From a virus (taxonomy: Duplodnaviria > Heunggongvirae > Uroviricota > Caudoviricetes): a DNA stretch of 43,481 nucleotides. Shown piece by piece: positions 1,553 through 33,752 of the stretch. A program made the position numbers and the translations under genes. The DNA is taken from the IMG/VR virus record IMGVR_UViG_2711768000_000011. One strand, 5' to 3'. The notes under the pieces were generated by a model that was not told where the DNA came from, made no database searches, and saw nothing but the letters and a program-made list of their open reading frames with translations. Position 1 is the first letter of the stretch. Every line of letters begins with the position of its first letter.

Positions 1553-1741
1553 TCACGAGGACTGAAGTTTCTCGCAATTAAAATTTATCAGTTTTACTTT
1601 CTGCTCTCTGGAAACGCCTGCTTCTTTTTTACCTGAGAGCATTTTTTCGCATTCTGATTTCGTTAGTTTAGATTTTGAATATCTTGTCCAGTTAGTAGGA
1701 GTGCCACCTTCCTTTTCAATAGTGGCGGTAATTTTATACAT
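1553..1741 (-). CDS. ydaC: Small Rac protein YdaC-like, 62 aa from MYKITATIEK
   Basis: ATG at 1741-1739 is preceded by GGAGGTG. Its start overlaps the end of the ralR reading frame (ATGTATAA). The 86-aa track ORF is an upstream extension without an RBS. Confidence 0.55.
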   Translation of the reverse strand: MYKITATIEKEGGTPTNWTRYSKSKLTKSECEKMLSGKKEAGVSREQKVKLINFNCEKLQSS

Positions 1742-1983: not shown

Positions 1984-2793
1984 TTATTCCTCTGAATTAT
2001 CGATTACACTGTATTCCCCGGTTAATACAGAGGAATCTGCAGGATCGATTGTCAGTGGTTCCTTTTCATCCATTGATACTGCACGCTGGATCTCAATTGA
2101 TACGGGCAGATATTTGAACAGGCGACGAATAGCCGTTTTCTTTGCCATTTCTTCCCAGTGAGTTACCCACGGCCCGTTATTACCAGCTTTACTCTGGCTG
2201 CGCACCAGCTCAATCTGTTTGCGCGTCATAACTTCAAACTGAGTACCTCCGTCTTTCAGTCTTGCGACAGCATAGACGTGGGTAACAGGGGCATCTTCGT
2301 TTTCTCCTGGGCGGTGTATTAACTTTTCATCAAGGCCAAATTCGAAATTAAACTCGTCACCTTCACGGACAACACGGGCTGACAGGCTGGCGATTTGACC
2401 TGAACGGCGAGCCAGATCAATCATGCCGCGATAGCCAATGATTAGCTGAACGTTTTTTTTACCGCTCTTTTCGTTTTTATTACCAAAAGGCAGTAAATAT
2501 GCATGACCGAGGGCGCTACCGGGCTCAAGTCCGAGCTGTGAACACTGTACGATTGCACTGACAAAACTCATAGTGTCACAGTTTCCTAACGCCGGAACTT
2601 TACGAATTTCTGTGGTGGCGATACGGATCATACGTTCAGCCGTCATATGGCGTGGAAGAGCTGCTGCCAGTTGCTCTTTCATTGATGGCTGGTTAATAAA
2701 ACTAATCACGTCGTTATTTTTAATTGCTGCTGGTGCACGGTTTCCCTGAGTTTTTTGCAGATCGGCTTTTGCGATTGGTGGTTGCTTAGTCAT
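1984..2793 (-). CDS. recT: RecT single-strand annealing recombinase, 269 aa
   Basis: Sequence from [17 protein letters not shown] recognised as RecT. Start ATG 2793 has an AGGA SD and overlaps the recE stop by 8 nt. The track ORF begins 19 codons upstream. Confidence 0.9.
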
Positions 2794-5386
2794 TTGCATA
2801 TTCCTTAGCCCAGCGGGGCAGTGATAACGTCTTAATAGCTGGCCATTCATCGGTATTGAGGCAGTCAGCCAGGGTTCGCAGATTGCGGTGATATTCCAGC
2901 TGACCTGCCAGTTTTGCTTCTTCGCCCATCATGAAAATTTCAACCGGATAACGTCCGCATTCAATAGTTGTGCTGGCAACCAGAAAAACGAAAGTTGGCT
3001 GCACTCCAAACTGTGCTTCATAACCGTCACTGTAGAATGCATCCTGAACGTGATAGCGGTAGTCGTAATAAGCGGTTTTGAATCGTTGAATATCCGCCGT
3101 AGTTTTCACGTCCATGATCCAGTGAAATTCAGGGATAATTTTGTCCGGACGGCACCGACACAAAATTGCTGTTTCAGGATCTTCCCAGTAAATTGATGAT
3201 TCAGCGTGTCCGGCGCTTTCAACAAGCCATTGCCCCAGCGGCAAAGCCATAACGCTCTGATACATGAGTTCAATTTTCCGGCCTTCTTCGGCAGTGATAA
3301 CCGTTTTTCCTGTGCTTGCGCATTCCCTCAGAAACGCTTTCTCTTCTTCTTTTCCGGAGTTTGTCCGGCGGTTAAATTCAGGTGCTACGATAAAGCGGTT
3401 ACTGAATTCTTCCGGCTCAAGTACCCGGCAGTGGAAAGCGGTTCCTAAATCGAGCGTTTTTGTCTTTGTGGTGTCCACGGGGGCATTTTTACGCCACAAA
3501 TACAGTGCCGGAGTATCAGCAATGTCATCGAGCTGAGACTTACTGACACCGGGACCCGCGTGGTAATTCTCATTCGAAATTCCGTAATAAATACCTGGCT
3601 CTATGTCTTCTACGATTACGGGATCTGCGACTTCGCCAGTTTCATCACTGCAATCGCGATGCGGATCGCTGCCAGCATTCTCATTGTGCGGATGTTCAGC
3701 GCCTTCCATTTCCTCCGGATCATTTTCCTTAGCTTCAACCTGACTCTCTTCATCGAATGTTTCCTGGTATGTTGCGTCGCCCATCACCGCACCACAGTCA
3801 GGGCAGTTATCCCCGCCAGTCTGGCCGCAGGCATTGCAGGCTATTTCCGGTTCCTGTTGCACTACTGGCTCAGGTTGATTCATATCCGGGCTGGTTTTTT
3901 CCGTTTCTGGCTGGTTCTGGTACACACAATCGCGAGTCTGGATCCCCTTTACCCATTTCGGATCGTTCGGGTCGCTAATTCCGTCAACAAATTCACCACG
4001 TGATGCAGCAAGCAATTTATCGGCATCGACAGGATTTTTTGATGGAATGTTTTTCCGGGCTTCATGGAGTTCTGCCCGCAGTTCCTGATATTTCGCATCA
4101 ACAGAATTTACCTGTGACTGAGCATCCAGCGGCTGCGTGTCCTGATGATGTTCAGTTGCGTCCGGTTCCATTGTTTCAGCCTCTCCCTGTTCAACTGCCG
4201 TTGTTCCAGATGGTTGCGGTTTTTCTTCATCATCCTGTTTTCCTTCTTCTGTTACTCGCTGCGGCATCGGGGCAGAGGAGCGACCGCAGGCAATATCCAC
4301 GATTTCCGGATCAGGGTTGGCATGATCGGTTTCAGTCAGTACTTTGTTCAGATATTCAGTGACGTGCGCGGGGATGACCTCGATCCCAATTGGTGCTTCT
4401 TTTACGGACGCAACCACGATGGCGCGGGAATAATCCAGCCCGCCAGGCATGGTGATGAATTTGTCGCGGAAAACAGAAAAGGGCGGTTTATTTTCAGCGA
4501 TAATTTCCTCAATGCGTTTAGCGTGTGCCGGATGAAGGTTATAGATGTCCAGATCCATTGAACGGGCCAGTACGCCAGTGGCTACGTCCCGCGCCAGTGA
4601 CGTCAGATCGTGTACGAAACCTTCGCCGCGATCGGTGAGGTTTCCGCCGCCAGCATTAGCACCGGAAGCCGTGCGAGTGATGTGTGAAACACGATTACCC
4701 TTCATCCACTCTTTTGTCAGCAGTCCTCGATCGGTGTAGTCAGCGTTCAGGTATGCTTCGAAAAAAGCAGTTATCAGTCCCAGGTTTGAATTACCAGGAT
4801 TAGGGAAAACTTTGTCAGTGTCACGAACCAGTTTGTGGAGTTCGCGAATTTCCAGCGGGTCGAGCAGGCTGGTTTTGTGGGAAACAGCCAGGGCAGTAAC
4901 AGCCGGTAGTTCTTCAGCCCGAGCAATGTGTAATGCCTGGAGTCCGTCGCGTGAAACGTGCGTTACCGGTTTTTCGCTGCCGTGTTGAGCAAGCCAACGA
5001 ATGGGCAGTTCCTGGCCAGAAATTGGGAGTAGCATATTCTCCTCAATCTCAGTCATGTCTTCGCCGTTGACGTTGGTATTGCCTTGATAGTGAGCGTTGT
5101 CTGGTGCTGCTCCCGGTTTTAGTTCCCATGTCATGGAGTCTTTGCTGAGTTGATAGCGTTCACTCCAGGTAAAATCGATCTCACCTTCAGCGGGCAGGTC
5201 ATTAACGACAGGAAAATTCGTGGCAACAGCTTTAAAATAGCTGCTCAGTTTTTTACCTGACTTAACGATCAGGTAGTCCAGAGTGGCACAGGTCGATTCA
5301 AAATCGTTGCTTGCCCACAGGACGACGTCAGGTTCACCGGATGATTTTTTCGCTTTCCGTAACAGGAAGAGTGGTTTTGTGCTCAT
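2786..5386 (-). CDS. recE: Exodeoxyribonuclease VIII RecE, 866 aa
   Basis: 866-aa ORF with acidic/proline-rich central region and C-terminal nuclease domain. Length and sequence recognised as Rac RecE; translationally coupled to recT. Confidence 0.9.
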
Positions 5387-5837: not shown

Positions 5838-6008
5838 TTAAAGTTCATGTGCCATCTGGTCTTTTTCGGCACAAGCTTCACTGCAATATTTTCTCGGTTC
5901 GTCTTTTGATAAAATCCCGTGCATGAAGTGAAGCATTCTTTCAATAGCTTTGCTTTCTTCAACGTCTTTTTTGCAAAGGTGGTAAGCACATTTTATTTTC
6001 TTAGTCAT
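5838..6008 (-). CDS. ydaE: YdaE-like zinc-binding small protein, 56 aa
   Basis: Hand translation: [59 protein letters not shown] overlaps the kilR stop (TGATG). Missing from the ORF track because it is under 60 aa. Confidence 0.75.
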   Translation of the reverse strand: MTKKIKCAYHLCKKDVEESKAIERMLHFMHGILSKDEPRKYCSEACAEKDQMAHEL

Positions 6009-6229
6009 CACCATGACTCCGCCTTTACAGGTAAACCATCACGACCGAGGAAGACTTTAATCATGCGGTCAGTAATGCATGTTTTTGTGGTCAGGTTACG
6101 AATATATAGTTTTCGCTTTTTAATATTGTTTGCCGAGGCAATATATGTCCGGCCTTCATGAAGAACATAATCGCCAGGAGTCACACACTGACGTGGTATT
6201 TCATCAGTTCCGAAGTGATGTGCAATCAT
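6008..6229 (-). CDS. kilR: KilR cell-division (FtsZ) inhibitor, 73 aa
   Basis: From second ATG ([15 protein letters not shown]...) with GGAG 7 nt upstream. 73 aa matches Rac KilR. Confidence 0.8.
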
Positions 6230-6410
6230 AATTATCTCCATTTTTACAAATGAACTTTGTTGATGCGGTGCCTGGTGCCTCCAGGTGACTGCAACCAGTT
6301 AACAATTACAGTCGGCTTTCCCACCCAAACCAATAAGGACTAACATGACTTTTAACTGTGCCACGTGCGCTTAGCCGCATTCACCGCATCACAAAATTCA
6401 CTTTAAAAAG

Positions 6411-6452
6411 GGCGGACATCAGCCGAACTTCAAGAAAAAAACTGATGCCGCC
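6411..6452 (-). terminator. Stem-loop (GGCGGCATCAG...CTGATGTCCGCC) followed by CTTTTT on the minus strand, upstream of kilR
   Basis: 11-12 bp imperfect inverted repeat with a large loop; the T-run is on the minus strand only. Candidate leftward terminator or attenuator. Confidence 0.35.
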
Positions 6453-6670
6453 AGGACTACACACAGCAATGTCGTTATTTACAACCGGAGGCGCACTCCC
6501 ACCATTTAAATTTAACAGACAAGACCGACTCTTTATGGATATCGGAAATGCGCCTTCGTGTTGTGCCCGGTTTTATTTCACCACCTCCGGGCTTCGGTGG
6601 TCTCGGCTATACCCCTACAGCGAGAGCTTGTGTTAACATTTCAATACCCTTACAGTTGAGAGTTATTGAT

Positions 6671-7159
6671 ATGTTGGATGTATTTACTCCATTGTTGAAA
6701 CTTTTTGCTAACGAGCCACTCGAAATACTTATGTATACGATTATCATTTTTGGTCTCACTCTCTGGCTGATACCGAAAGAGTTTACTGTCGCATTCAATG
6801 CTTATACTGAAATACCTTGGCTCTTTCAGATTATCGTTTTTGCCTTTTCTTTCGTGGTCGCCATTTCCTTCTCAAGATTGCGAGCACATATTCAAAAGCA
6901 TTATTCATTACTACCAGAGCAACGAGTATTGCTTCGTTTATCTGAGAAAGAAATCGCTGTATTTAAAGATTTCCTTAAAACAGGAAATCTTATTATCACT
7001 TCTCCTTGCCGTAACCCGGTTATGAAAAAATTAGAACGGAAGGGCATCATTCAACATCAGAGTGATAGCGCAAACTGTTCTTATTATCTCGTCACCGAAA
7101 AATACTCCCATTTTATGAAGTTATTCTGGAACAGCAGGAGTAGACGTTTTAATCGTTAG
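6671..7159 (+). CDS. sieB: Superinfection exclusion protein SieB, 162 aa
   Basis: From ATG 6671 (MLDVFTPLLKLFANEPLE...), with two hydrophobic segments. 162 aa as recalled for SieB. The track ORF carries a 41-codon 5' extension. Confidence 0.8.
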   Translation: MLDVFTPLLKLFANEPLEILMYTIIIFGLTLWLIPKEFTVAFNAYTEIPWLFQIIVFAFSFVVAISFSRLRAHIQKHYSLLPEQRVLLRLSEKEIAVFKDFLKTGNLIITSPCRNPVMKKLERKGIIQHQSDSANCSYYLVTEKYSHFMKLFWNSRSRRFNR

Positions 7160-7456: not shown

Positions 7457-7630
7457 CTTATCTCTCCCCTTAACGCCGGGTGGCGGAACTGAAACCTGCT
7501 GCACTGCAAAATCTGAACCCTGCCGTCATGTTCATACGCCTCGGGCTGGCTACTTAACCCCTGACCACTGCCTGGTAACTCGAAGTATTGCCCTGCGTTC
7601 TGTGGGGCGGGGTGGGTTGGTAGGTATATA

Positions 7631-7671
7631 ATGTACTTTGTGTTCATTGATGTAAAGTACTATAAGTACAT
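7631..7671. promoter_or_regulatory. Operator-like repeat cluster (ATGTACT-N3-AGTW/TGTT), candidate OL/PL region
   Basis: ATGTACT at 7631-7637. Palindromic AGTACTATAAGTACAT at 7656-7671 contains the same heptamer on the minus strand. Same motif as the repeats in the repressor/cro intergenic region. Confidence 0.45.
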
Positions 7672-7746
7672 TTTGTGTGTAAAAAAATGAGATGGGATAA
7701 AGTGAAGCACAAACCCGGAGGGGGACGCTACCGGATTTATGCTGGT

Positions 7747-8184
7747 TTAAGAGGCTTTTTGTTTTTTCTTTCGTGCTAGCTCTTCGTAAATTGCATTGTA
7801 CTTCTGTTTTTTCTCCTCAAGAGTTTTTAAAAGTTCATCTGTCTCACTGTCAGGGAGCTCGTCCAGAAGGTCAATGATGATTTTTTGTCTTGGATTTAAC
7901 TCCTGATAGAAACGTACCTGTCCACTTTCTTCTGTATCCTCTCCCAAAAGATAGGTTGGTGTTGTTCCAATGAGTGTTGCTAATTCCCTTAATTTCTCTC
8001 GGCGAGGAATTGTTTCGCCATTAAACCATTTGCTAACCGCTTTTGGTGTTAATTTCATTCGACGGGCAATTTCTGCCTGCCTTCCATGTTGTTCATAACC
8101 AGCGTTTTCACAGGCTAGCGCAAGCCTACTGGCGAACTCTTTACGCGCTTTATCTTCATGAACCATAAGTTCAATGATATTCAC
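7747..8184 (-). CDS. Prophage repressor, XRE-family HTH N-terminus with coiled-coil C-terminus and no S24 peptidase domain (RacR position)
   Basis: HTH segment QAEIARRMKLTPKAVSKWFNGE. Divergent from the Cro-like gene. Start is GTG 8184 or ATG 8166. C-terminal part is charged/helical rather than a LexA-like protease. Confidence 0.7.
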   Translation of the reverse strand: MNIIELMVHEDKARKEFASRLALACENAGYEQHGRQAEIARRMKLTPKAVSKWFNGETIPRREKLRELATLIGTTPTYLLGEDTEESGQVRFYQELNPRQKIIIDLLDELPDSETDELLKTLEEKKQKYNAIYEELARKKKQKAS

Positions 8185-16046: not shown

Positions 16047-16336
16047 TGGTGAATTTACGTAAAGCGGCTAAAGGCCAGATGTGCCAGATCAGAATCCCTG
16101 GCTACTGCAATCACAATCCCGAAACCTCTGTGCTGGCGCATTACAGGCTGGCGGGGACGTGCGGAACAGCGACAAAACCACATGATATGCAGGCGGCGAT
16201 AGCCTGTAGCTCATGCCACGATCTAATCGACGGGCGGGTAAAAACCAGCGATTACACCAAAGAAGAATTGCGCCTGATGCATGCTGAAGGGGTTTTTCGC
16301 ACACAAGAAATCTGGAGAAAGAAAGGTCATTTATGA
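16046..16336 (+). CDS. YbcO-like (DUF1364) putative nuclease, 96 aa, Cys-rich
   Basis: Cys cluster CQIRIPGYC...CSSCHD. Start overlaps the upstream stop (TAATG). Confidence 0.6.
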   Translation: MVNLRKAAKGQMCQIRIPGYCNHNPETSVLAHYRLAGTCGTATKPHDMQAAIACSSCHDLIDGRVKTSDYTKEELRLMHAEGVFRTQEIWRKKGHL

Positions 16337-16875
16337 TTTACCCAACGAATACAGGAAAAAGCGGAGAACACCTTCGCCTCACCACGCTGGAAAGTGTCTG
16401 GATTCAGGGAAAACTACGTATGTGGGGGCGCTGGTCGTATATTGGCGGTGGCAGGTCAGGGAATATGTTCAATCAGTTGTTGGCATCCAAAAAACTGACG
16501 AAAACAGCCATTAATGAAGCCCTGCGCAGAATGAAAAAAGCGGGAATAGAGAAAGCTGAGCTGGAAGCGTTTTTGCGAGAGATGATCAACGGCAAGCAAA
16601 AGAGCTGGCTGGCGCATTGTACTGATGCAGAGGCGTTATGTATTGATCGAGTCATAAGTGAGGTGCTGGCAGAGCATCCAGGATTGATTTGCATTCTCCG
16701 GCAACGCTATGAAGGGCGGGGGATGACTAAGCGCAAAATGGCTGAATTGCTAAATGATGCACACCCAGAGTGGTGTTTTAGCACATGCGAAAAACGGATT
16801 GCTAATTGGTTAGCTGTTGCTGAGTATGCCCTATATATTCCCATGCGTGAATCATTTGCTGAGAAAATGGCTTGA
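16333..16875 (+). CDS. Hypothetical protein, positional candidate for late-gene antiterminator (Q-like), 180 aa
   Basis: Last gene before a strong terminator and the lysis module, as for lambda Q. ATGA overlap with the upstream gene. The functional call is positional only. Confidence 0.4.
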   Translation: MIYPTNTGKSGEHLRLTTLESVWIQGKLRMWGRWSYIGGGRSGNMFNQLLASKKLTKTAINEALRRMKKAGIEKAELEAFLREMINGKQKSWLAHCTDAEALCIDRVISEVLAEHPGLICILRQRYEGRGMTKRKMAELLNDAHPEWCFSTCEKRIANWLAVAEYALYIPMRESFAEKMA

Positions 16876-17328: not shown

Positions 17329-17860
17329 GGGCTGGTTTATTGTATGCCAAATGATTATTAAAAAGGTTGTGTTAATAACAAGATCCGAAATAATATGCCT
17401 GCATATTTTTATCTTGCTTATATTCTGCATATTGTGCATAGCAGGCTCATCCCTGCAATCAAAACTGTATGATGAGTATTTTTTGTTTTCCTTTTTTCCA
17501 GTCATCTGATGATGACCTGCTTCTTTTTAATCCGGATCGACATCAGTTTTTTAAGATAATTCCTGCGAGTTATATGCATAAATGCCACAAACTCCGCATT
17601 TTATGTGGTTGGGAGTTGCCGGGCGCGCAGTGAGTTTGCTAAGAAAACTCCTGCATGGTGAATCCCCCTGTGCGGTGGGGTGATACCATTAACCTTTTCT
17701 GTCGCCGACAGGTATCACGAACATTTTGTTCACCGGGAGGCACCCGGCACCATGCACTTCAATAGATTCTCTCCACATTATGGATATTCTTTCAGAATAT
17801 CCCACGCAGACTTTGTGTAAATGTTAACAAATGTGCGTTTTATTTGATCTGATTCGCTGT

Positions 17861-21914: not shown

Positions 21915-22000
21915 TATATGGCTGATTTATAATTGTGAGTTTAATATTATGTTGACTCACTCATTGATCCAATACCTAACTTTACCAGCAACACCTCCGC

Positions 22001-22035
22001 CCCCAGTAGCACTGGCTGCTGGGGTGCGTTTTATT
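22001..22035 (+). terminator. Possible terminator after trkG (CCCCAG...CTGGGG then GCGTTTTATT)
   Basis: 6-bp stem with 12-nt loop; the T-run starts 4 nt after the stem. Weak. Confidence 0.3.
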
Positions 22036-22051
22036 CATAAAGCAAGGCTGT

Positions 22052-22840
22052 ATGAGCGAGAAATTAAAGATAGTCTATCGCCCATTACAAGAATTGTCAC
22101 CGTATGCGCACAACGCCAGGACGCACAGTACTGAGCAGGTGGCACAACTGGTAGAAAGTATTAAGCAATTCGGCTGGACTAATCCGGTGCTGATTGACGA
22201 AAAGGGCGAAATTATTGCGGGTCACGGTCGTGTTATGGCGGCTGAAATGCTCAAAATGGATTCTGTTCCGGTCATTGTTCTGTCTGGCCTGACGGATGAG
22301 CAGAAAAAGGCGTACCGCCTGGCAGATAATCGCCTGCCGATGAATGCTGGCTGGGATGAAGATCTGTTGCGGATGGAGCTGTCGGACCTAATCAATGCTG
22401 ATTTTGATGTCTCCCTGACAGGCTTCATCCCGGCAGAAATTGATGAACTGTTGACGGATGTTTTGCCCGGTACAGGAAATGAGGAGGAGCCGTATACGAC
22501 GAAAATTGATACGCCTGTTTATGAGCCGTCAGGCGGTAAACCGGATATCAGTGAACTGTACGACGATACGAAAACTCAGGAGCTGATCAGCCGGATACGT
22601 TCGGCGTCCCTTGATCCTGATATTGAGAAATTCCTCCTGTGTGCAGCAGAACGTCACACGGTGTTTAATTTCAGCAGAATTGCGGACTATTACGCTCATG
22701 CCCCCGCTGAAATTCAGTGCCTTTTCGAGGAGTCGGCGCTGGTGATCATTGATTATCAGCAGGCTATTGAAAATGGATTTGTCCGAATGACGCAGCGCAT
22801 GGTGGAGATCATGCATGGCGGGGAGGAGGAATATGCGTGA
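22052..22840 (+). CDS. ParB-like nuclease-domain protein, 262 aa
   Basis: N-terminal KIVYRPLQELSPYAHNARTH...IIAGHGRVMAA resembles the ParB/Srx N-domain. C-terminal part is of unknown function. Confidence 0.65.
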   Translation: MSEKLKIVYRPLQELSPYAHNARTHSTEQVAQLVESIKQFGWTNPVLIDEKGEIIAGHGRVMAAEMLKMDSVPVIVLSGLTDEQKKAYRLADNRLPMNAGWDEDLLRMELSDLINADFDVSLTGFIPAEIDELLTDVLPGTGNEEEPYTTKIDTPVYEPSGGKPDISELYDDTKTQELISRIRSASLDPDIEKFLLCAAERHTVFNFSRIADYYAHAPAEIQCLFEESALVIIDYQQAIENGFVRMTQRMVEIMHGGEEEYA

Positions 22841-23765
22841 TGATTTTTGCGCCTTTATTCTGACTCACGGGCGACCGGACAAAGTTCTGACTTACCGGAC
22901 GTTGCGTCGTGCTGGCTATACCGGGAAAATTTTTATCGTTGTTGATGATGAAGATAAGACACGGCATCAGTACATGGCTGAATTTGGTGAACAGGTGCTG
23001 GTATTTTCCAAAGCCGATATTGCTAGTCGTTTTGACGAAGCCGATAATTTTAGTGACCGCCGCTCAATTTTTTACGCCCGTAATGCCTGTTTCGACCAGG
23101 CAAAACTGGTCGGGTGTAAATACTTCATTCAGCTCGATGATGATTATCACGAGTTCCAGTTTCGGGTGGATCGCAACTATGACCAGGCCTATTTCCCGAT
23201 AAGGAAACTGGATGAGATCCTTTCTGAAATGCTTGCGTACTACGAATCAATACCTGCTCTTTCCATCGCTATGTCGCAGGGCGGGGATTTTCTTGGTGAC
23301 AATGGCGGCCATGCTTCGTGGGTGAAACGCAAGGCAATGAACAGCTTTATCTGTTCGGTTGATCGACCGTTCTCATTCATGGGGCGCATTAACGAGGATG
23401 TGAATACGTACACGAATCTCGGTCGCTGTGGTGAATTGTTTATGACGATCGGTGCTGTCCAGTTAGGGCAGAAACAGACGCAGAAAAACAGCGGCGGAAT
23501 GACCGAGCTGTATCTGGATTCCGGAACCTACGTTAAAAGTTTTTACTCCGTCATGTATGCGCCGTCGTGCGTAAAAATCTCACTTATGGGTGCCAGTCAT
23601 AAACGCATTCACCATCAGGTCACCTGGAACAACGCTGCAGTAAAAATCCTTCACGAAAAATACAGGAAGAAGACACCCTGCATATCAATGGGGGTGACAA
23701 ATGATTCCGTATTCGAAAGTCGAGTCTCTGGCAGCGTGCCGGATGACTGCACAACAAATCGCTGA
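22833..23765 (+). CDS. Hypothetical protein, about 310 aa, with weak GT-A-like (nucleotide-sugar transferase) features
   Basis: ATG 22833 with GGAGGAGG SD, overlapping the upstream stop by 8 nt. Hydrophobic strand followed by VVDDEDK and later QLDDDYHEF (DxD-like). Fold assignment is tentative. Confidence 0.55.
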   Translation: MRDDFCAFILTHGRPDKVLTYRTLRRAGYTGKIFIVVDDEDKTRHQYMAEFGEQVLVFSKADIASRFDEADNFSDRRSIFYARNACFDQAKLVGCKYFIQLDDDYHEFQFRVDRNYDQAYFPIRKLDEILSEMLAYYESIPALSIAMSQGGDFLGDNGGHASWVKRKAMNSFICSVDRPFSFMGRINEDVNTYTNLGRCGELFMTIGAVQLGQKQTQKNSGGMTELYLDSGTYVKSFYSVMYAPSCVKISLMGASHKRIHHQVTWNNAAVKILHEKYRKKTPCISMGVTNDSVFESRVSGSVPDDCTTNR

Positions 23766-23952
23766 CGTTCTGGATGTTGATCTGAACCGACTGAAAGAAA
23801 ATCGGGAAGCAATGACAGATTTTTATGCGGCCATCCGTAAGGGCAGAGCGAAAGGTGAAGCCGAGTTACGAGCGGCATTGTTTAAGCTTGCCAGAAAAGG
23901 GGATGCCTTTGCTCTGCGCGAACTACTCAGGGTGGATAAAAATCAGGACTAA
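23701..23952 (+). CDS. Small helix-rich protein, 83 aa, possible DNA-binding accessory protein upstream of terminase
   Basis: GGGGGTGA SD before ATG 23701. Overlaps the previous gene by 65 nt in another frame, so the start is uncertain. Confidence 0.4.
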   Translation: MIPYSKVESLAACRMTAQQIADVLDVDLNRLKENREAMTDFYAAIRKGRAKGEAELRAALFKLARKGDAFALRELLRVDKNQD

Positions 23953-23955
23953 CTG

Positions 23956-25050
23956 ATGAGCAGACCGGACTGGGGGGCGTTGCAGCAGGAGTATATTGCT
24001 GAATACACCCGCTCCGGTATATCTCCGGTGGCATGGTGTGAAGCAAGGGGACTGAATTACGCAACAGCCCGTCGTTACATCAAAAAAACTCCGAAAAATG
24101 CGCAGACAGAAATGTGCAAAACTGCGCAAAAAAGTGCGCAGAAAAAATCTGCGCAGACTGCACAAAAGCGGAACGAAAAATCTCAGGAAAAAAAGCCAGT
24201 ATTCGATGCGGGCCTGAATGAGGGCGACGCGGAGGAATTTTCGTTCTGTCCCGATGAATTCGGCATTTCTGACCAGCAGGCTAAGTTTGCGATGCTTGTT
24301 GCTCAGGGTAAAAAGCCGACAGAGGCGTACCGACTAGCCGGTTATGAGGGGCAAGGTGCGACAGCTAACAGCAACGCCAGTCGTATGCTTAGAAATGCCA
24401 GGGTTTTTCGCGCTATCAGCTACTTCCGCAATCAGTACCAGAAACGCTATACCGCAGACCTGGATTTACTAGTGAGTCAGTTGATGGCTATTGTCCTGGC
24501 CGACCCCAATCAGCTTGCACAATTTCGCCGTGTTAACTGCCGTTATTGCTGGGGCGAGAATCATCTCTACCAGTGGCGCGATATAGCAGAATTCGACAAG
24601 GCAGCGGCGCAGGCTTCCAGAGATGGCAAACCCGAACCGGAATATGGAGGCCTCGGCTTTGTTGATAACGCCATACCCAATCCGGACTGCCCGAAGTGCT
24701 GCGGTGAGGGAACGGGACAGCTTTATATGGCTGATACCACTCTGCTTGATGGGGATGCGCGGCAATTATATGCAGGGGCAAAATTCGGAAAATTCGGCGT
24801 TGAGATCCTGCTGGAGGATAAGGCTGCCGCCCGGCGTGAATTGTTGCGTTTGTTTTCTGCTGGCGGGGCTTTATGTGCAGATAAGCGGCTACGGGAACTG
24901 GAAATTGAACGGCGCAGAATGGAAAACCAGAAGCTGCGCAAAGAGATCGAAACGGTGGAAGATAATGAACATCCCCAGCCTGTGGCGATCAATATTAATG
25001 TGGTTGATGCCAGAGTAAGGAGTGATGAAGATGATCTCTCCGACGCTTAA
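23956..25050 (+). CDS. Terminase small subunit-like protein, 364 aa
   Basis: Central FAMLVAQGKKPTEAYRLAGYEG...ASRMLRNARV matches the terminase small-subunit (Terminase_2-type) signature. Lies immediately upstream of the large subunit. Confidence 0.65.
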   Translation: MSRPDWGALQQEYIAEYTRSGISPVAWCEARGLNYATARRYIKKTPKNAQTEMCKTAQKSAQKKSAQTAQKRNEKSQEKKPVFDAGLNEGDAEEFSFCPDEFGISDQQAKFAMLVAQGKKPTEAYRLAGYEGQGATANSNASRMLRNARVFRAISYFRNQYQKRYTADLDLLVSQLMAIVLADPNQLAQFRRVNCRYCWGENHLYQWRDIAEFDKAAAQASRDGKPEPEYGGLGFVDNAIPNPDCPKCCGEGTGQLYMADTTLLDGDARQLYAGAKFGKFGVEILLEDKAAARRELLRLFSAGGALCADKRLRELEIERRRMENQKLRKEIETVEDNEHPQPVAININVVDARVRSDEDDLSDA

Positions 25051-26332
25051 TGTGCCTCAGGCGCGATTTCTTTCAATGCCCCATAAATTTAAAGCCTATA
25101 TTGCTGGTTTTGGCTCGGGCAAAACATGGGTTGGGTGTGGCGGCATATGCAAGGGGATTTGGGAGCATCCAGGTATAAATCAGGGATATTTTGCGCCAAC
25201 GTATCCCCAAATTCGCGATATTTTTTACCCTACAGTGGAAGAAGTTGCTGCTGACTGGGGATTGAACGTAAAAATTAATGAGGGAAATAAAGAGGTTCAC
25301 TTTTATTACGGACGCCAGTATCGGGGAACCACTATCTGCAGATCGATGGAGAAGCCACAAACGATCGTCGGTTTCAAAATTGGTAATGCGTTGGTGGATG
25401 AACTGGACATTTTGCCGAAGGAAAAAGCCAGAACGGCGTGGCGCAAGATAATTGCACGTATGCGTTATAAGATTGATGGACTTCGCAACGGTATTGACGT
25501 TACAACCACGCCGGAAGGATTCAAATTTGTCTACGAGCAGTTTGTTAAAGCCGTGCGTGAAAAAACAGAGCTGGCCTCACTGTATGGTCTGGTGCAGGCA
25601 TCTACTTTCGATAATGAAAAGAACCTGCCAGCAGATTACATTCCTTCGCTTCTTGAATCATACCCTCCAGAGCTGATTAAAGCCTATCTTCGAGGACAGT
25701 TTACTAACCTGACAAGTGGTACTGTTTACCATCAGTTTGACCGGAAACTGAATAATTGCGAAGAAGTGGAGCAGCCAGGGGAGCCGATTTATATTGGGAT
25801 GGATTTTAACGTTGGAAAGATGGCGGGAATCGTCCATGTGCTGCGTTTGGGGCTTCCATGTGCGGTAACTGAAATCATCAATGCCTACGATACGCCGGAT
25901 ATGATCCGCATCATTAAAGAACGCTTCTGGCTGTATGATGGGAATGATTACCGGAAAGTGAGGGAAATTTATATTTATCCAGATGCTTCCGGGGATTCCA
26001 GAAAATCAAGTAACGCAAGTACGACGGATATAGCCCAGCTTAAGCAGGCTGGTTTTAACGTTGTGGTGAACAGCTCGAACCCGCCAGTAAAAGATCGCGT
26101 TAACTCAATGAATGCAATGTTCTGCAATGCCAATGGTGAGCGTCGCTATAAAGTTAATGTGAAGCGTTGCCCGTTATATGCCGAATCTCTGGAGCAACAG
26201 GTCTGGGATGAGAAGGGGGAGCCTGATAAAAAATCTGGCAATGATCACCCGAATGATGCCGGAGGTTATTTCATCGTTAAGCAATTCCCTATTGTCAAAC
26301 CGACCGGAAGAGTCACATCACTTCGGATTTAA
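25022..26332 (+). CDS. Terminase large subunit, 436 aa
   Basis: Walker A AGFGSGKTW near the N-terminus and acidic nuclease-domain residues later. Start could be ATG 25025. Confidence 0.8.
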   Translation: MMKMISPTLNVPQARFLSMPHKFKAYIAGFGSGKTWVGCGGICKGIWEHPGINQGYFAPTYPQIRDIFYPTVEEVAADWGLNVKINEGNKEVHFYYGRQYRGTTICRSMEKPQTIVGFKIGNALVDELDILPKEKARTAWRKIIARMRYKIDGLRNGIDVTTTPEGFKFVYEQFVKAVREKTELASLYGLVQASTFDNEKNLPADYIPSLLESYPPELIKAYLRGQFTNLTSGTVYHQFDRKLNNCEEVEQPGEPIYIGMDFNVGKMAGIVHVLRLGLPCAVTEIINAYDTPDMIRIIKERFWLYDGNDYRKVREIYIYPDASGDSRKSSNASTTDIAQLKQAGFNVVVNSSNPPVKDRVNSMNAMFCNANGERRYKVNVKRCPLYAESLEQQVWDEKGEPDKKSGNDHPNDAGGYFIVKQFPIVKPTGRVTSLRI

Positions 26333-26334
26333 TT

Positions 26335-27741
26335 ATGGCTGATATATCAACACCCAACCTCGACTATAACGATATGCTGGAGGCGTGGGATATTAACGAC
26401 GCACTGATGGGCGGTACGCTTGAAATGCGCAGGCAGGGGGAAAATTATCTCCCAAAATGGCCTAACGAAGATGAAGACGCTTATAAAAAACGCCTGTCTG
26501 TGGCTACGCTACTTCCTGTGTATGAAGAAAGCATCAAGCAAAATATTGGGCGCATATTTGCAGAGCCGACAGTATTGAGTGAGGAAACGCCGGCAAAAAT
26601 CAGGGAATATGCAGAAAATATCGACATGGAGGGGAGCCGACTGGATGTGTGGGCGCAGCAATTTTTCAGCCTCGCATTTCAGTATGGTGTGGCACATGCG
26701 CTGGTGGACTATCCACGAACGGATATGAAAGAGATTCGGACAAAAGCCGATGAAAACGCGACCGGTGGTCGTCCGTACGTTACGATGCTGAATCCACGCC
26801 AGGTTATTGGATGGAAATCGAAAGTTGAAAAAGGGAAAGTTGTTCTCACTGATTTGCGTATAAAAGAGGTCATCATTATTGATGGTGATGATTTCGGGCA
26901 GAAGAAGGTGGAGCAGATCCGCCATATTATGCCCCGTCGAGTTGAAATTTATCGACGTAGCGAAGGCACTAATGGCGAATCTGTCTGGACGCTTCATGAG
27001 TCATGGAATACCAGCCGTGATGATATTCCTCTGGTAACACTGTACACGAAGAAAACAGGATTTATGCGTGGTACACCGCCATTGCTTAATCTTGGCTTGC
27101 TGAATATCAAGCACTGGCAAAGCCAGAGCGAGCAGGACAATATTCTTCATGTTGCCCGCGTTCCATTGCTGGTGGCCTACGGGCTGGACAGGAATGAAGA
27201 ACTGACGGTTGGTGCATCCACCGCTACGATTTTTGAGGACAGAACAAAAAATGGCCTCGAATATGTTGAACATAGTGGCGCAGCGATAGAATCTGGCGAA
27301 ACATCACTTGAGAAGCTGGAAAATCAGATGCGTCATGCCGGCGCTAAACTTCTGCGTGCTGAAAATACATCCACCAAATCTGTTGATCAGACTAATGAAG
27401 AGCGAATGCAGGAAAACTCGCCGCTTTATACAATGGCGAACTCCCTCGAAGATGCCCTCGATAATATTCTCCAGATAATGGCGGAATGGATCGGAGAGAG
27501 TTGCGGTGGCAATGTGGATGTGCGCACTGAACTGGATGTATCTGCCCAGGTGTTTGACTCATCCTCCGCGCTGGCTGTTCAGTCATTGCGTCAGGGCGGT
27601 GATATACGTCAGATTGATGCGGTTCGGGTGTTGCAGGCGTTGAAATTTATCGATCAGGATTCCCGTCCAGAGGAAGTGATCGATGAATTAAAAAATCAGA
27701 GTGTAATGCTGATGGAAATCAATGATGCAAACCGTGAATGA
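26335..27741 (+). CDS. Portal protein, 468 aa
   Basis: Large ORF directly after the terminase large subunit with an acidic C-terminus. Assignment by position and size. Confidence 0.6.
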   Translation: MADISTPNLDYNDMLEAWDINDALMGGTLEMRRQGENYLPKWPNEDEDAYKKRLSVATLLPVYEESIKQNIGRIFAEPTVLSEETPAKIREYAENIDMEGSRLDVWAQQFFSLAFQYGVAHALVDYPRTDMKEIRTKADENATGGRPYVTMLNPRQVIGWKSKVEKGKVVLTDLRIKEVIIIDGDDFGQKKVEQIRHIMPRRVEIYRRSEGTNGESVWTLHESWNTSRDDIPLVTLYTKKTGFMRGTPPLLNLGLLNIKHWQSQSEQDNILHVARVPLLVAYGLDRNEELTVGASTATIFEDRTKNGLEYVEHSGAAIESGETSLEKLENQMRHAGAKLLRAENTSTKSVDQTNEERMQENSPLYTMANSLEDALDNILQIMAEWIGESCGGNVDVRTELDVSAQVFDSSSALAVQSLRQGGDIRQIDAVRVLQALKFIDQDSRPEEVIDELKNQSVMLMEINDANRE

Positions 27742-28837
27742 ACGGCTGCGTGATGAATCAATTGCTCATGCAGTCTGGATATCCCGCTATAGCACTGGCG
27801 TGGCTGCCAGAATGGTGAAAATACTGAATGACAGCGATGCGGAACTTACTGCTCGCCTGCTGATAGCACTGGACAGCCTCGATCCAGGTAGTTTTACCGT
27901 TAAGCGCCTGGAGTCACTTCTGGCGAGCGTCAGAGAGGTTAACCGCACTGCTATTAACAGCATGTTTACCAGTCTCTCCGGAGAGCTGAACGAGCTGGCA
28001 ATTTATGAGGCTGGTTATCAGTTAAGTCTGTTTGATTCTATGCTACCTGATTTTGTTGCTGATGTTCACCCTCTGGTTGGTATCTCTCCTGATGCACTTT
28101 ATGCCGCTGCAATGGCGCGACCATTCCAGGGACGACTGCTCAGTGAGTGGGCCTCAGATCTTGAGGCGGATCGGCTCAGACGCATAACAAATACAGTGCG
28201 TCAGGGTTTTTTGCTGGGGGATACCAATGAGCAGATCGCAAGAAAAATTCGGGGACATGTCAGTAAGGGATTTCAGGATGGTGCATTGCAGATGAGCCGG
28301 GCTAATGCGGCCAGCATTGCAAAAACAGCGGTTGGACATCTTGCTGCTACTGCCCGTGAGAGTTTTGCCAGCGCGAATAATGATTTGATTAAGGGTAAGC
28401 AATGGTTATCAACGCTTGATAATCGTACTACGCCACAATGTCGAATCAGGGATCGCCTCAAATATACGCTGAATAATAAACCTGTAGGTCACAGCGTGCC
28501 TTATTTGCAGGGGCCGGGAAAAATTCATTTCTGCTGCCGCTCAACGGAAACGTTCATTCTGAAATCAGCGAAGGAACTGGGTATTGATGTTCGCGATATT
28601 TCCCCGGCTGAGCGGGCCAGCATGGATGGCGTGGTGGCCGGAGATACAACCTACAGGGAATGGTTTTTGCGTCAGCCTTACACCAGACAAAAACAGATTG
28701 TGGGGGAAAGCCGAGCAAAGCTGATTCGGGATGGTGGTATGTCGCCAGATGAATTTTACACCGATAAAGGCGAATGGCTGACGCTGAAGCAGCTCCGTGA
28801 GCGTGATGCACAGGTATTCAGAAAAGCAGGGATTTAA
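27722..28837 (+). CDS. Head morphogenesis / minor capsid protein (Mu F / SPP1 gp7-like), 371 aa
   Basis: Follows the portal gene with overlapping start. Family call is from the typical gene order and recalled motifs. Confidence 0.55.
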   Translation: MMQTVNERLRDESIAHAVWISRYSTGVAARMVKILNDSDAELTARLLIALDSLDPGSFTVKRLESLLASVREVNRTAINSMFTSLSGELNELAIYEAGYQLSLFDSMLPDFVADVHPLVGISPDALYAAAMARPFQGRLLSEWASDLEADRLRRITNTVRQGFLLGDTNEQIARKIRGHVSKGFQDGALQMSRANAASIAKTAVGHLAATARESFASANNDLIKGKQWLSTLDNRTTPQCRIRDRLKYTLNNKPVGHSVPYLQGPGKIHFCCRSTETFILKSAKELGIDVRDISPAERASMDGVVAGDTTYREWFLRQPYTRQKQIVGESRAKLIRDGGMSPDEFYTDKGEWLTLKQLRERDAQVFRKAGI

Positions 28838-28856
28838 ATAAATCATTTATTACAAC

Positions 28857-28882
28857 AGGCTACCTTCGGGTGGCCTTTTTTA
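28857..28882 (+). terminator. Rho-independent terminator (AGGCUACC-UUCG-GGUGGCCU + UUUUUU)
   Basis: 8-bp stem including one G-U pair, a UUCG tetraloop and a T-run, 20 nt after the head morphogenesis gene stop. Confidence 0.7.
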
Positions 28883-28941
28883 TTGCTGCGATCCGGATGG
28901 TGAGCAGCGTAACTGTCGGAAGACTTAAACCAGGTACTAAT

Positions 28942-29706
28942 ATGAAACTGAAAACGGTCGAGATTAACGGAAAACAATACGCAGAAATTGATACTGCTGG
29001 CCTGCCAGTTTATGTGCACGACGATGGTAAAGAAATTGGCTTCGATGCACCGCTGGCGACAAAAAAAATTACAGAGCTTAATGGCGAGGCAAAAAATCAT
29101 CGCCTGGCTAAAGAAGCTGCAGAGGAAAAACTGGCTAAGTTTGCCGCTATCGAAGACCCGAAGAAGGCGATCGAGGCACTGGAAATGCTGTCAAAAATCG
29201 ACCAGAAAAAGCTGCTCGATGCGGGACAGGTTGACCAGGTTAAGGCAGAAATTACGAAAAATTTTCAGCAGCAATTAGATGAAGAAAAGCAACGCTCTCA
29301 GATGCTGGAGAAGCAGCTTTACGATTCTATGATTGGCGGTAGTTTTGCGGGTTCAAAATATATTGCCGATAAAATTGCGATCCCGGCAGATTTATTACAA
29401 GCCCGCTTCGGGCAGGCATTCAAAGTGGAAGAAGGGAGGATCGTTGCTTATGACGCTTCCGGCAACAAAATTTATTCCCGCGCGAAGCCTGGCGAACTGG
29501 CGCAGTTTGATGAGGCGCTGGAGTTCCTTGTCGAAAATTACCCTCAGAAAGACTACATCCTGAAAGCCAGTGGCAACAATGGCGGCGGCTCCCGTCCGAC
29601 ACAGCATGATATTGGTCAGAAAACGATGAAACGCTCTGCTTTTGATGCACTGGATGTTGCAGGTAAGCAAAACGCATTGAAAGACGGTATCACAATCGTT
29701 GATTAA
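28942..29706 (+). CDS. Putative scaffolding protein, about 254 aa
   Basis: Coiled-coil-rich (KKAIEALEMLSKIDQKKLLDAGQVDQVKAEITK...) and immediately upstream of the major capsid gene. Start uncertain; the track start 28870 lies inside the terminator. Confidence 0.5.
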   Translation: MKLKTVEINGKQYAEIDTAGLPVYVHDDGKEIGFDAPLATKKITELNGEAKNHRLAKEAAEEKLAKFAAIEDPKKAIEALEMLSKIDQKKLLDAGQVDQVKAEITKNFQQQLDEEKQRSQMLEKQLYDSMIGGSFAGSKYIADKIAIPADLLQARFGQAFKVEEGRIVAYDASGNKIYSRAKPGELAQFDEALEFLVENYPQKDYILKASGNNGGGSRPTQHDIGQKTMKRSAFDALDVAGKQNALKDGITIVD

Positions 29707-29804
29707 CACATTTGTCAGCTTCCGGATGGGAGCTGGTGTCAGGGCTGGATAGCTCATTACTCCATCTATTCACAATTACGCAAATTTTTAAGGAATATTT
29801 AATT

Positions 29805-30944
29805 ATGGCTGGAAATACCCTGACCGGGTTGATCCCGACTATTTATACCGCCCTGGATGTTGTATCCCGTGAGCAGGTAGGTTTTATCCCTGCGGTAGCA
29901 AAAAACGCAAAAGCTGACGCCGCAGCAAAAGATCAGACGGTAACCGCGCCAGTTGCGCCTGAGGCGAAAACCGAAGATATCGTACCGGGGCCGTCAGCTC
30001 CGAATACCGGTGATCAAAATATTGGCACTGTTGATGTAAAAATTACTAAATCCAAAATGGCACCGGTTAAATGGAATGGTGAAGAACAACTGGCTCTTGG
30101 CCCTTCAGGGACTTACAACACCATTCTGGCTGATCAGTTCAAGCAGGCTTTTCGCGCCCTTGCAAACGAGGTTGAGGCTGATCTTGGTGCGTTGTATTTC
30201 GGTGCTTCCCGCGCCGTGGGAACCGCAGGGACAACGCCGTTTGGTGTTAAAGATGATCTTTCTGATGCTGCTCTGGCTCGTCAGGTTCTGGAGGATAACG
30301 GCGCACCGACAACCGATCTGCAGATGGTGCTTGGCTCCACTGCCATTGCTAATTTGCGCGGAAAACAGTCTGTATTGTTTAAAGTGAATGAATCCGGCAC
30401 TGAACAGCTACTGCGTGAGGGCGTGTTGGGGCGTCTGGAGGGATTCAATATTCACAGTTCGGCAGGTGTGAAACGAGCGCCAAAGGTTGCTGCAACTGGT
30501 TATCTCGTGAATGGAGAGAAAAAAGAAGGCGATGTTCTTATTTCCATTGATACTGGTTCGGGGAGTATTTCTGCAGGTCAGATTGTTACGTTCGCTGGTG
30601 ATCCGAATCAGTATGTTGTGGCAGCAGCGACCAGCAATCTGATTACTCTTGCAGCGCCCGGACTGCGTCAGGATCTGGCCGATGATACTGCCATCACAGT
30701 TGTTGGGGCCTTTACTGCAAATATGGCGTTTGATCGCAACGCGTTTCTGCTGGCATCCCGTACTCCGGCAATGCCGGAAGGTGGCGATAATGCTGATGAT
30801 GTAATGAATGTTACGGACCCGATTTCAGGGATTACGTTCCAGATTGCACTGTATCGTCAGTATCGCCAGGTGCGCTATGAAGTTGGACTGGCATGGGGTG
30901 TTTCATCAGTGAAGCCGGCACATGGTTGTCTGATTCTTGGTTAA
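29805..30944 (+). CDS. Major capsid protein, about 379 aa
   Basis: ATG 29805 with AAGGAAT SD. Followed by a strong terminator. Position after the scaffold gene. Confidence 0.7.
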   Translation: MAGNTLTGLIPTIYTALDVVSREQVGFIPAVAKNAKADAAAKDQTVTAPVAPEAKTEDIVPGPSAPNTGDQNIGTVDVKITKSKMAPVKWNGEEQLALGPSGTYNTILADQFKQAFRALANEVEADLGALYFGASRAVGTAGTTPFGVKDDLSDAALARQVLEDNGAPTTDLQMVLGSTAIANLRGKQSVLFKVNESGTEQLLREGVLGRLEGFNIHSSAGVKRAPKVAATGYLVNGEKKEGDVLISIDTGSGSISAGQIVTFAGDPNQYVVAAATSNLITLAAPGLRQDLADDTAITVVGAFTANMAFDRNAFLLASRTPAMPEGGDNADDVMNVTDPISGITFQIALYRQYRQVRYEVGLAWGVSSVKPAHGCLILG

Positions 30945-30954
30945 ACATTCAAAC

Positions 30955-30975
30955 GGGGCTTCGGCCCCATTTTTA
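30955..30975 (+). terminator. Rho-independent terminator (GGGGC-UUCG-GCCCC + AUUUUUA)
   Basis: Perfect 5-bp GC stem with UUCG loop and T-run, 10 nt after the capsid gene stop. Confidence 0.8.
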
Positions 30976-30986
30976 ATGGGGGGCAT

Positions 30987-31163
30987 ATGGCCGGATTAAC
31001 TAAAGAGCAAAGAGCACAGCGTGAAGCCGCACAAAAAACGCAAATTGAGTTAGTGGTTATGGTGACCGATTATCAGATGTTTCCCGGCGCACCAACTATC
31101 GCTAATGTTCATCCTGATGAAGTTGACAACTGGAAGGCTATGGGCTGGAAAACTCAGGAGTAA
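30987..31163 (+). CDS. Small hypothetical protein, 58 aa (MAGLTKEQRAQREAAQKTQIELVVMV...)
   Basis: Hand-translated ORF between the capsid terminator and the head-tail genes. Under the track's 60-aa cutoff. Confidence 0.4.
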   Translation: MAGLTKEQRAQREAAQKTQIELVVMVTDYQMFPGAPTIANVHPDEVDNWKAMGWKTQE

Positions 31164-31166
31164 CAC

Positions 31167-31562
31167 ATGATCACTTACGTGACCTGTGATGACGTTGATA
31201 ATGCGTTTGGGAACGCCTGGACGAGTGAGAACGCTAAAAATAAAGCTGTTTTAATGGCTAATGCCTGGCTTAATGGCTTCAACCTGAAAATTAACCCATC
31301 CCGTATTCCGGAAGAGGTAAAACTTGCGGGAGCATATGCAGCCAGAATTGCCTCATTCGGTAAGTTGTTTCAGCAGAAAAATGATTCTGGCGTTGTTATC
31401 AGTAAAGCCGTGTCGGCTGACGGGGTCAGTGTATCGAAATCATTTTCTGAGTTGCCAGCAAACAGCACTGCATTGCTTGAACCCGATTTACAGCTTGCGA
31501 TAGCACTGCTGAAACCGTACGGACTTAGTCGCTCACAAGTCAGGGTTGTGAGGGGGGGATAA
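31167..31562 (+). CDS. Head-tail connector / head completion protein, 131 aa
   Basis: AGGAG SD. Position in the head-tail joining block; start codons overlap stops through 32715. Confidence 0.55.
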   Translation: MITYVTCDDVDNAFGNAWTSENAKNKAVLMANAWLNGFNLKINPSRIPEEVKLAGAYAARIASFGKLFQQKNDSGVVISKAVSADGVSVSKSFSELPANSTALLEPDLQLAIALLKPYGLSRSQVRVVRGG

Positions 31563-31945
31563 TGGGGCTTCGTGAAGAGATTCAGTCAGAGGTTGCCGCT
31601 GCTTTTGATGAGGATTTAGCGGACGCCGTGAGTGATTTTTCTGGTTCTTACGTTACGCACCGGCACTGGGATCCTGTGACGGAAACTGGCGGCGAATCAA
31701 CCGCAATCTATACCGGGCGAGGCGTGTTGACACGTTATAAGCTGGGCAGAATTGATGGGATTAATATTTTGCATGGTGACCTTAAATTAACCGCTCTGGT
31801 ATGCGAGGTTACGGATAAACCAGCTGTCGACCATATTATTGAGATTTATGATCCTGTATCAAGGCAGTTACAACGATACGAGGTAATTACAGCAAGTGTA
31901 GATCCTTCCGCATCAGTTTACTCTATCCAGTTAAGGAGAGCGTAA
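31562..31945 (+). CDS. Head-tail adaptor / head closure protein, 127 aa
   Basis: Translationally coupled (ATGA-type overlap). Assignment by position. Confidence 0.5.
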   Translation: MGLREEIQSEVAAAFDEDLADAVSDFSGSYVTHRHWDPVTETGGESTAIYTGRGVLTRYKLGRIDGINILHGDLKLTALVCEVTDKPAVDHIIEIYDPVSRQLQRYEVITASVDPSASVYSIQLRRA

Positions 31946-32715: not shown

Positions 32716-32741
32716 CGCAATTAATGACATAGGAGGCTCCT

Positions 32742-33704: not shown

Positions 33705-33752
33705 TTTTCCGTTATTCCTCCTGTGGTACTGCCCTACAGGGGGACGCATTGA

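Follow-up and report, generated by a model that had tools for sequence, protein, structure and literature searches.

What is the stem-loop that precedes kilR in a lambdoid prophage, and does it account for the silence of kilR and recET in the lysogen? A reading of the sequence alone had taken it for a tL-like terminator or attenuator with this role. The DNA analyzed, hereafter the window, is a stretch of 43,481 nucleotides from a virus of the Caudoviricetes (IMG/VR virus record IMGVR_UViG_2711768000_000011). Positions 6230–6670 of the window correspond exactly to the kilR-sieB intergenic region of the Rac prophage of Escherichia coli. In the segment 6200–6680, 480 of 481 bases are the same as in the Rac prophage of K-12 MG1655, the lone difference being found at 6271, and kilR, kilS and sieB all fit one offset (K-12 coordinate = window coordinate + 1,412,000). 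A 601-bp query (6150–6750) was found at ≥80% coverage in 1379 of 5426 complete E. coli genomes. The genes of the early-left region of Rac, and the elements identified in the interval, are listed in Table 1. The interval had been said to hold no credible ORF, and this agrees with what was found: only short mechanical ORFs occur, as those at 6358–6636 (plus strand, 92 aa) and 6244–6333 (minus strand, 29 aa), and none is annotated in K-12. Coding potential of the interval was considered and discarded; the 29-aa ORF sits in the variable central part of the kilR leader. Elsewhere in the window, RalA, the antitoxin sRNA of RalR, was recognized at 1557–1735 (plus strand) with a score of 225 bits, as expected for Rac.

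Table 1. Genes and sequence elements in and around the kilR-sieB intergenic region (window coordinates).
Feature	Position	Strand	Basis or remarks
recE	2786–5386	minus	early-left region of Rac
racC, ydaE			between recE and kilR in early-left region of Rac
kilR (FtsZ inhibitor)	6008–6229	minus	downstream of KilS terminator and leader
Structured kilR leader, STnc100/PasD-related	6230–6404	minus	Rfam, inverted repeat, fold
kilS gene, 98-nt Hfq-dependent sRNA KilS (b4833)	6405–6502	minus	K-12 RefSeq ncRNA 1418405–1418502 (minus)
U5 tract of terminator	6405–6409	minus	after C6410; KilS 3' end = 6405
KilS intrinsic terminator hairpin, DicF type	6411–6452	minus	arms GGCGGCAUCAG...CUGAUGUCCGCC; fold, Rfam, covariation
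RprA-like seed	6455–6480	minus	KilS nt 23–48 versus RprA nt 51–75, 24/26 match
RNase E cleavage site inside KilS (nt 32)	6471	minus	published; 5' edge of 16-mer common with RprA
Candidate KilS promoter, extended -10	6509–6517	minus	TG (6517–6516), T, TAAATT (6514–6509); +1 = G6502
Second inverted repeat, ACCACC(N10)GGTGGT	6580–6601		ACCACC 6580–6585, GGTGGT 6596–6601
sieB	6671–7159	plus	divergent neighbour; 6503–6670 = sieB upstream region
ydaF, ydaG			between sieB and racR-like gene in early-left region of Rac
racR-like repressor gene	7747–8184	minus	

The flagged feature is already known, as it is part of an annotated sRNA gene of E. coli K-12. The kilS copy of the window is identical to the K-12 gene at 98 of 98 positions, and was assigned to b4833 on the basis of this identity and of its location between kilR and sieB. 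Given the common offset and the kilS annotation, KilS is terminated by the hairpin and has its 3' end at the last U of the T-run. KilS had been predicted from RIL-seq data and verified by northern analysis as an Hfq-dependent RNA; it accumulates in stationary phase, and its transcription can start from a promoter of its own (Bar et al. 2021, Front Microbiol, PMC8175672). Table S6 of the same paper lists a start site at 1418502, from the data of Thomason 2015, and an RNase E site at 1418471, from the data of Clarke 2014 (Bar et al. 2021, PMC8175672). The sequence TG-T-TAAATT found upstream of 6502 is a candidate promoter of the extended -10 type; 7 nt separate the end of its hexamer from the KilS +1 residue. 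No good -35 sequence accompanies the candidate promoter, and no call was made there by the consensus promoter scan. Full-length KilS folds with a ΔG of -34.9 kcal/mol (z -3.28). A block of the 5' part of the RNA, GUGCGC(C/U)UCC(G/A)GUUGU (window 6485–6495, minus strand; about 960–980 in contig L001), was also seen upstream of dicF in Qin, as well as in several phage classes that otherwise differ.

The inverted repeat at 6411–6452 and the minus-strand T-run at 6405–6409, both pointed out from the sequence alone, are borne out by folding. Read leftward, residues 6452–6411 form a stem of about 13 bp, with a single bulged U (6416) and a loop of 15–19 nt. The hairpin has a ΔG of -19.5 kcal/mol (z -4.23), a value reached by 0 of 200 dinucleotide shuffles. 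The stem-loop is placed directly before the U-tract on the transcribed strand, as in intrinsic terminators, and was missed by a simple consensus terminator scan solely because the scan had a loop limit of 8 nt. All the 90 sequence variants retrieved from phage contigs fold as a hairpin followed by a U-run. Pairs of the inner stem covary among the variants (AU to GC and CG to UA, in both directions), and the structure is kept by these compensatory substitutions; the inner pairs are the only informative ones, since the pattern used in the search imposed the 5' GGCGG. The terminator structure is genuine and has been maintained in evolution. That it might be a chance feature of AT-rich intergenic DNA is a reading of negligible probability. 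Only the long loop and the single bulge speak for it, and it is ruled out by the shuffles, by the covariation across phage variants, and by the 3' end of an sRNA mapped experimentally at the U-run. The short U-tract (5 nt) and the long loop suggest that the terminator may be leaky.

The RNA which separates the terminator from kilR is also highly structured. The leftward transcript of 6226–6409 folds with a ΔG of -66.5 kcal/mol (z -5.31). Residues 6409–6382 and 6270–6243 pair over a long range in a helix of about 24 bp, which closes the leader and takes in the U-tract of the terminator. The kilR Shine-Dalgarno sequence (GGAG, 6239–6236) and the AUG (6229–6227) are unpaired in this fold. Variants in the 3' arm of the helix (G/A, U/C, C/U) keep the pairing in all instances. 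The leader was found in 4406 of the 5426 complete E. coli genomes, and in phage contigs it precedes at least 4 different downstream ORFs. By analogy with DicF, the long helix, with the U-tract included, would be a likely RNase III site on read-through transcripts.

No Rfam family was detected in the interval at the gathering score, nor at the motif in 14 related loci. Matches to DicF and STnc100 emerged in a scan at relaxed threshold; both are below the gathering score, and the memberships are not claimed. The STnc100 model (RF02076) is matched in full by 6222–6408 (minus strand), at 35.5 bits versus a gathering score of 47. The closing helix, the GGUGAAU motif and the CACCNGGAGGCACCNGGCACC hairpin of STnc100/PasD RNAs are also found in the kilR leader. 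In contrast to them, the kilR element is a 5' leader, not a free-standing sRNA. The window also carries a bona fide STnc100 copy (17623–17809, plus strand), which scores 86.6 bits, above the gathering score. This copy lies downstream of a 180-aa ORF (16333–16875) resembling a late-gene regulator, and has no RprA-like seed. In the CCUGG/CCAGG hairpin, a compensatory change from U-A to G-C is seen in the 17623–17809 copy relative to the kilR leader. The same hairpin hosts the one residue at which the window and K-12 differ: the C at 6271 (G in the RNA) closes it by a C-G pair, the T of K-12 leaves a C-A mismatch. The base of the window is that of most phage homologues. In other phage contigs an STnc100-like structure precedes an RprA-like seed and a terminator, whereas in Rac it follows them. 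Such an order marks class 1 elements, found in L012, L020, L036 and about 27 other viral contigs, where an STnc100-like structure is located before the seed and the terminator; in L020 and L036, the two contigs scanned, an Rfam STnc100 match of 42–43 bits spans structure, seed and terminator. The notion that the leader may be an antiterminator of the HK022 put type was rejected at the sequence level only, as comparison to the put elements of the HK022 early region (22000–34000) revealed only 9–11 nt matches, at chance level.

It is highly likely that the interval is the kilR-sieB intergenic region of Rac encoding the known sRNA KilS, and that terminator and leader work as follows. Transcription of KilS starts at 6502 and ends at the hairpin and the U5 tract, as published. 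Polymerases reading through, coming either from the KilS promoter or from the RacR-controlled early-left promoter further upstream, would transcribe the 175-nt leader and then kilR-ydaE-racC-recET. The hairpin would thus be both the 3' end of an sRNA and a partial barrier, in the form of an attenuator or insulator, before a toxic gene. In read-through transcripts, cutting of the leader helix by RNase III, again by analogy with DicF, would release the sRNA from the mRNA of kilR. Since no promoter-like site was found by the consensus scan between the terminator and kilR, a role of the hairpin as attenuator or insulator for the toxic gene is plausible.

To what extent would such a barrier account for the silencing of kilR and recET? 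The hairpin had been proposed as a leftward terminator before kilR. It is an intrinsic terminator, it is oriented leftward, and a stable RNA ends at its U-run. It belongs, however, to kilS, which starts 98 nt upstream, and does not mark the end of a long pL transcript; nor is it an anonymous tL-like element, being the terminator of the annotated KilS gene. Leftward transcripts do not cross 6411–6452 unimpeded, since the published 3' end of KilS, at 1,418,405, falls at 6405. KilR is the toxic product which makes depletion of Rho or NusG lethal, and repression of the early-left promoter by RacR is the established primary control. Rho, NusA and NusG are also reportedly implicated in kilR silencing. 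According to Barshishat 2018, kilR is silenced via NusG-dependent termination, NusG depletion leads to read-through into kilR, and KilR mediates the growth arrest induced by OxyS. In the supplements of Adams 2021, kilR and sieB are not mentioned. As derepression of kilR is NusG-dependent, a Rho-dependent step is hinted at, which is not explained by an intrinsic hairpin. The hairpin is not the sole silencer. At least two barriers probably exist, of which it is one, perhaps not the most important.

That the hairpin is a tL-like terminator of a long leftward immunity transcript, and as such the principal silencer of kilR and recET in the lysogen, is unlikely. The stem-loop and the U-run are in the right orientation directly upstream of kilR. 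Like the tL-type terminators of lambda, which are overridden by N antitermination, the element is an intrinsic terminator, and in the early-left operon it is placed upstream of kil and of the genes for recombination. Two active, N-encoding relatives, phiSTEC1589-Stx1c and PhiR5_2, have a KilS-like element between N and kil in the early-left operon, hence downstream of the annotated N gene. In contrast to lambda, no N is annotated in this part of Rac, and the Rac terminator also forms the 3' end of a separately promoted, trans-acting sRNA. Given the independent start 98 nt upstream, the hairpin mostly terminates the sRNA. Both the repression exerted by RacR and the derepression which follows NusG depletion further argue against assigning to the hairpin the leading role. 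A variant in which the silencer in the interval is a Rho-dependent terminator, with a rut site, and the hairpin is incidental, would accommodate the read-through into kilR observed upon NusG depletion. We regard it as improbable. The RNA transcribed leftward from 6230–6670 is G-rich, with C/G ratios of 0.4–1.06 and no C-rich, G-poor stretch suitable as rut, and pairing is predicted for much of 6230–6502, a condition that does not favour the loading of Rho. A rut site within the interval was accordingly discarded. The only C-rich, G-poor stretch of leftward RNA between racR and kilR is at 7600–7760, between racR and ydaG, where C rises up to 34% and G drops down to 6%. By its composition, this stretch is a candidate rut site or Rho-dependent terminator, which could explain the NusG-dependent silencing. 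A promoter-like sequence, TTTACA-17-CATTAT, is found at 7656–7628 (minus strand).

Our preferred reading, a KilS terminator followed by a structured leader, finds a close parallel in the dicF-dicB region of the Qin prophage. Identity between Rac and Qin is about 90% over four elements: the terminator base, the U-tract, and the initial ~60 nt and final ~70 nt of the leader. The sRNA bodies upstream and the ORFs downstream (kilR, dicB) are unrelated. Judged from this alignment, the module made by terminator, U-tract and leader is shown to be homologous in the two prophages, and KilS takes the position of DicF, ahead of a different cell-division inhibitor. Shared features are the terminator base UUGGCGG...CCGCCC, the U5 tract, and the ensuing leader, which covers about 175 nt up to the Shine-Dalgarno sequence of the division inhibitor. 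In both prophages, which are defective and lambdoid, the series terminator, conserved leader, division-inhibitor gene is located in the early-left operon, and RNase E processing has been reported for both RNAs. The Rfam DicF model (RF00039) is matched by the KilS hairpin end to end (model positions 1–52) at 39.1 bits (E 2.5e-6), under the gathering score of 48. In contrast, the 5' body UUUCUGGUGACG and the loop ACUCCGUGA of DicF, which pair with xylR, pykA and ftsZ, are replaced in KilS, and only TGGCGG(T/C)ATCAGTTTT aligns. The biogenesis also differs, as DicF is processed from the ydfABC-dicF transcript, whereas KilS has its own mapped start. DicF is described in Faubladier 1990 as made by termination and by processing through RNase III as well as RNase E.

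KilS could in principle be a functional DicF orthologue, repressing ftsZ translation and acting with KilR on cell division. The DicF-type terminator, the same placement upstream of a division inhibitor, and the alternation of DicF-type and KilS-type bodies at the same slot are in line with this idea. The replacement of the 5' body and the loop and the Rfam score below threshold are against it, as is the finding that the only robust RIL-seq partner of KilS is yncL, not ftsZ, and we deem it very improbable. In a duplex scan at the ftsZ translation start, even DicF did not rise above shuffles.

The alternation of bodies was assessed by scanning viral contigs with the beginning of the leader as anchor, a design not biased toward any seed. 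Bodies found upstream are 78 of DicF type, 31 of KilS type with a few variants close to it, and about 14 of other kinds. The slot that holds the sRNA, upstream of the leader of kil, dicB and similar genes, may be viewed as a seed-cassette locus, in which DicF-like, RprA-like and other bodies are mounted on one terminator-leader scaffold. KilS-like elements also occur in other settings. In GER2 and PhiR12_3 the element lacks the leader, and lies upstream of an ea22-like gene. In the Rac-like contig L026 (5482–5964, minus strand) a KilS-like sRNA and the leader are followed not by kilR, but by isrK and C4 antisense RNA, a P1 immI-type module.

In the right part of the interval, upstream of sieB, a second inverted repeat had been noticed at about 6580–6605. 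The string is present (6580–6601), but lacks structural support. The fold of 6560–6612 is no better than those of shuffled sequences (minus strand, z -1.3; plus strand, z -0.7), and pairing of ACCACC with GGTGGT is absent from the minimum free energy structure of the plus strand. As a structure, the repeat is indistinguishable from chance and was dropped. A different hairpin is found in related phages at the equivalent place, which is a weak hint that the site may have some function. Just upstream of the sieB start codon, the two copies of a direct repeat, ATACCCCTACAG (6609–6620) and ATACCCTTACAG (6644–6655), lie 35 bp apart on the plus strand. They could be an operator or a promoter element of sieB; as a family of two copies only, they could also be due to chance.

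The body of KilS, which differs from that of DicF, carries a stretch known from an RNA of the host. KilS nt 33–48 (6470–6455), AUUGCUGUGUGUAGUC, are identical to RprA nt 60–75 at 16 of 16 positions. The score of the KilS/RprA local alignment is 40, the maximum obtained in 5000 shuffles is 30. The shared stretch is located directly 5' of the terminator in both RNAs, and both are cleaved at its 5' edge. As KilS, RprA is Hfq-dependent, accumulates in stationary phase and has yncL as partner. In RprA, nt 60–75 are the anti-site Ib pairing with the csgD leader, and nt 45–75 pair with ydaM, as established in both cases by compensatory mutations; a RprA60-105 degradation product is also mentioned (Mika et al. 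2012, PMC3465796). A perfect complement of the seed, 13 nt long, occurs in the csgD leader at -98 to -86 and overlaps the mutated CAGC tract at -90 to -87. The duplex predicted with csgD is -27.2 kcal/mol for KilS versus -25.5 kcal/mol for RprA. The only robust RIL-seq partner of KilS, yncL (Bar et al. 2021, PMC8175672), is also a target of RprA in both RIL-seq and TRIC-seq, and KilS and RprA are predicted to pair at the same yncL site by the shared seed. When KilS is folded at full length, its 5' end pairs with part of the seed; RNase E processing at nt 32 may activate the seed.

Outside of the seed the two RNAs are different. The overall sequence and the three-hairpin architecture of RprA are unrelated to KilS, and the Rfam RprA model (RF00034, gathering score 70) is matched at only 28.1 bits (E 2.1), the seed stretch being all that is in common. 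KilS has one extra C inside AACGA-AUUGC, and lacks anti-site Ia as well as RprA nt 28–45, corresponding to csgD site II and to part of the rpoS pairing. RprA is encoded in the core genome and Rcs-induced, whereas KilS is prophage-encoded, with no Rcs control evident. As KilS is devoid of the partners of sites II and Ia, and as single RprA-csgD sites are dispensable (Mika et al. 2012, PMC3465796), binding need not mean regulation. On the strength of the shared seed, we tentatively consider, with slightly less than even confidence, that KilS is a prophage-encoded RprA mimic housed in a seed-cassette slot, which could act on csgD, dgcM (ydaM) and further targets of RprA, or compete there. The identity also raises a practical point. 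One of the two KilS northern probes overlaps the 16-mer identical in RprA: it is probe 2, AGGACTACACACAGCAATGTCGTTATTTAC (Bar et al. 2021, Table S3), which holds the full complement of the 16 nt. Its cross-hybridization with RprA is possible because RprA, about 105 nt long, is also Hfq-dependent and also a stationary-phase RNA. A terminator-specific probe is GCGGACATCAGCCGAACTTCAAG.

The association of seed and GGCGG-type terminator was found in at least 120 viral contigs, next to about 27 classes of unrelated upstream sequence; as the pattern search required the motif, the figure reflects spread, not conservation. The 3' half of RprA and the phage seed-terminator module may share a common origin. 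Variations on the theme were observed. In L018, L069, L077, L099, L104, L123 and L128 the GGCGG...CCGCC hairpin downstream of the RprA-like seed measures 60–70 nt. A Shine-Dalgarno sequence and an ATG (GAAGATAATGTTC...) are enclosed in it ahead of the U-run, so that the start of a small ORF is buried in the terminator. In L079 (about 6932, minus strand) and L131 (2622–2690, plus strand) seed and terminator are directly followed by a boxA-like sequence, CGCTCTTTAACA; in L131, a gene for a cI-like repressor lies on the strand of the element, about 860 nt upstream of it. Pairing of the KilS seed with the translation start of kilR, as a cis or trans antitoxin, had emerged from the minimum free energy fold of the read-through transcript and was rejected. 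The duplex is no better than those of shuffles (59/100 for KilS, 18/100 for RprA), and no compensation was seen in relatives whose kil has GCU instead of GCA, or whose seed has C in place of U.

In the literature searched, which was incomplete so that earlier publication is possible, no paper was found linking KilS, or a prophage sRNA, with the RprA seed. The seed identity and the seed-cassette architecture might be the only new parts of the picture. For the Rac prophage, the analysis corrects the view of the hairpin, which ends a trans-acting sRNA and is not simply a recET silencer. It also separates an intrinsic step, at the KilS terminator, from a candidate Rho step near 7600–7760. If KilS is indeed an RprA mimic, a cryptic prophage would tap the host circuit of Rcs, curli and c-di-GMP (csgD, dgcM), and RprA phenotypes, as well as results obtained with RprA-directed probes, may be confounded by KilS in Rac+ strains.
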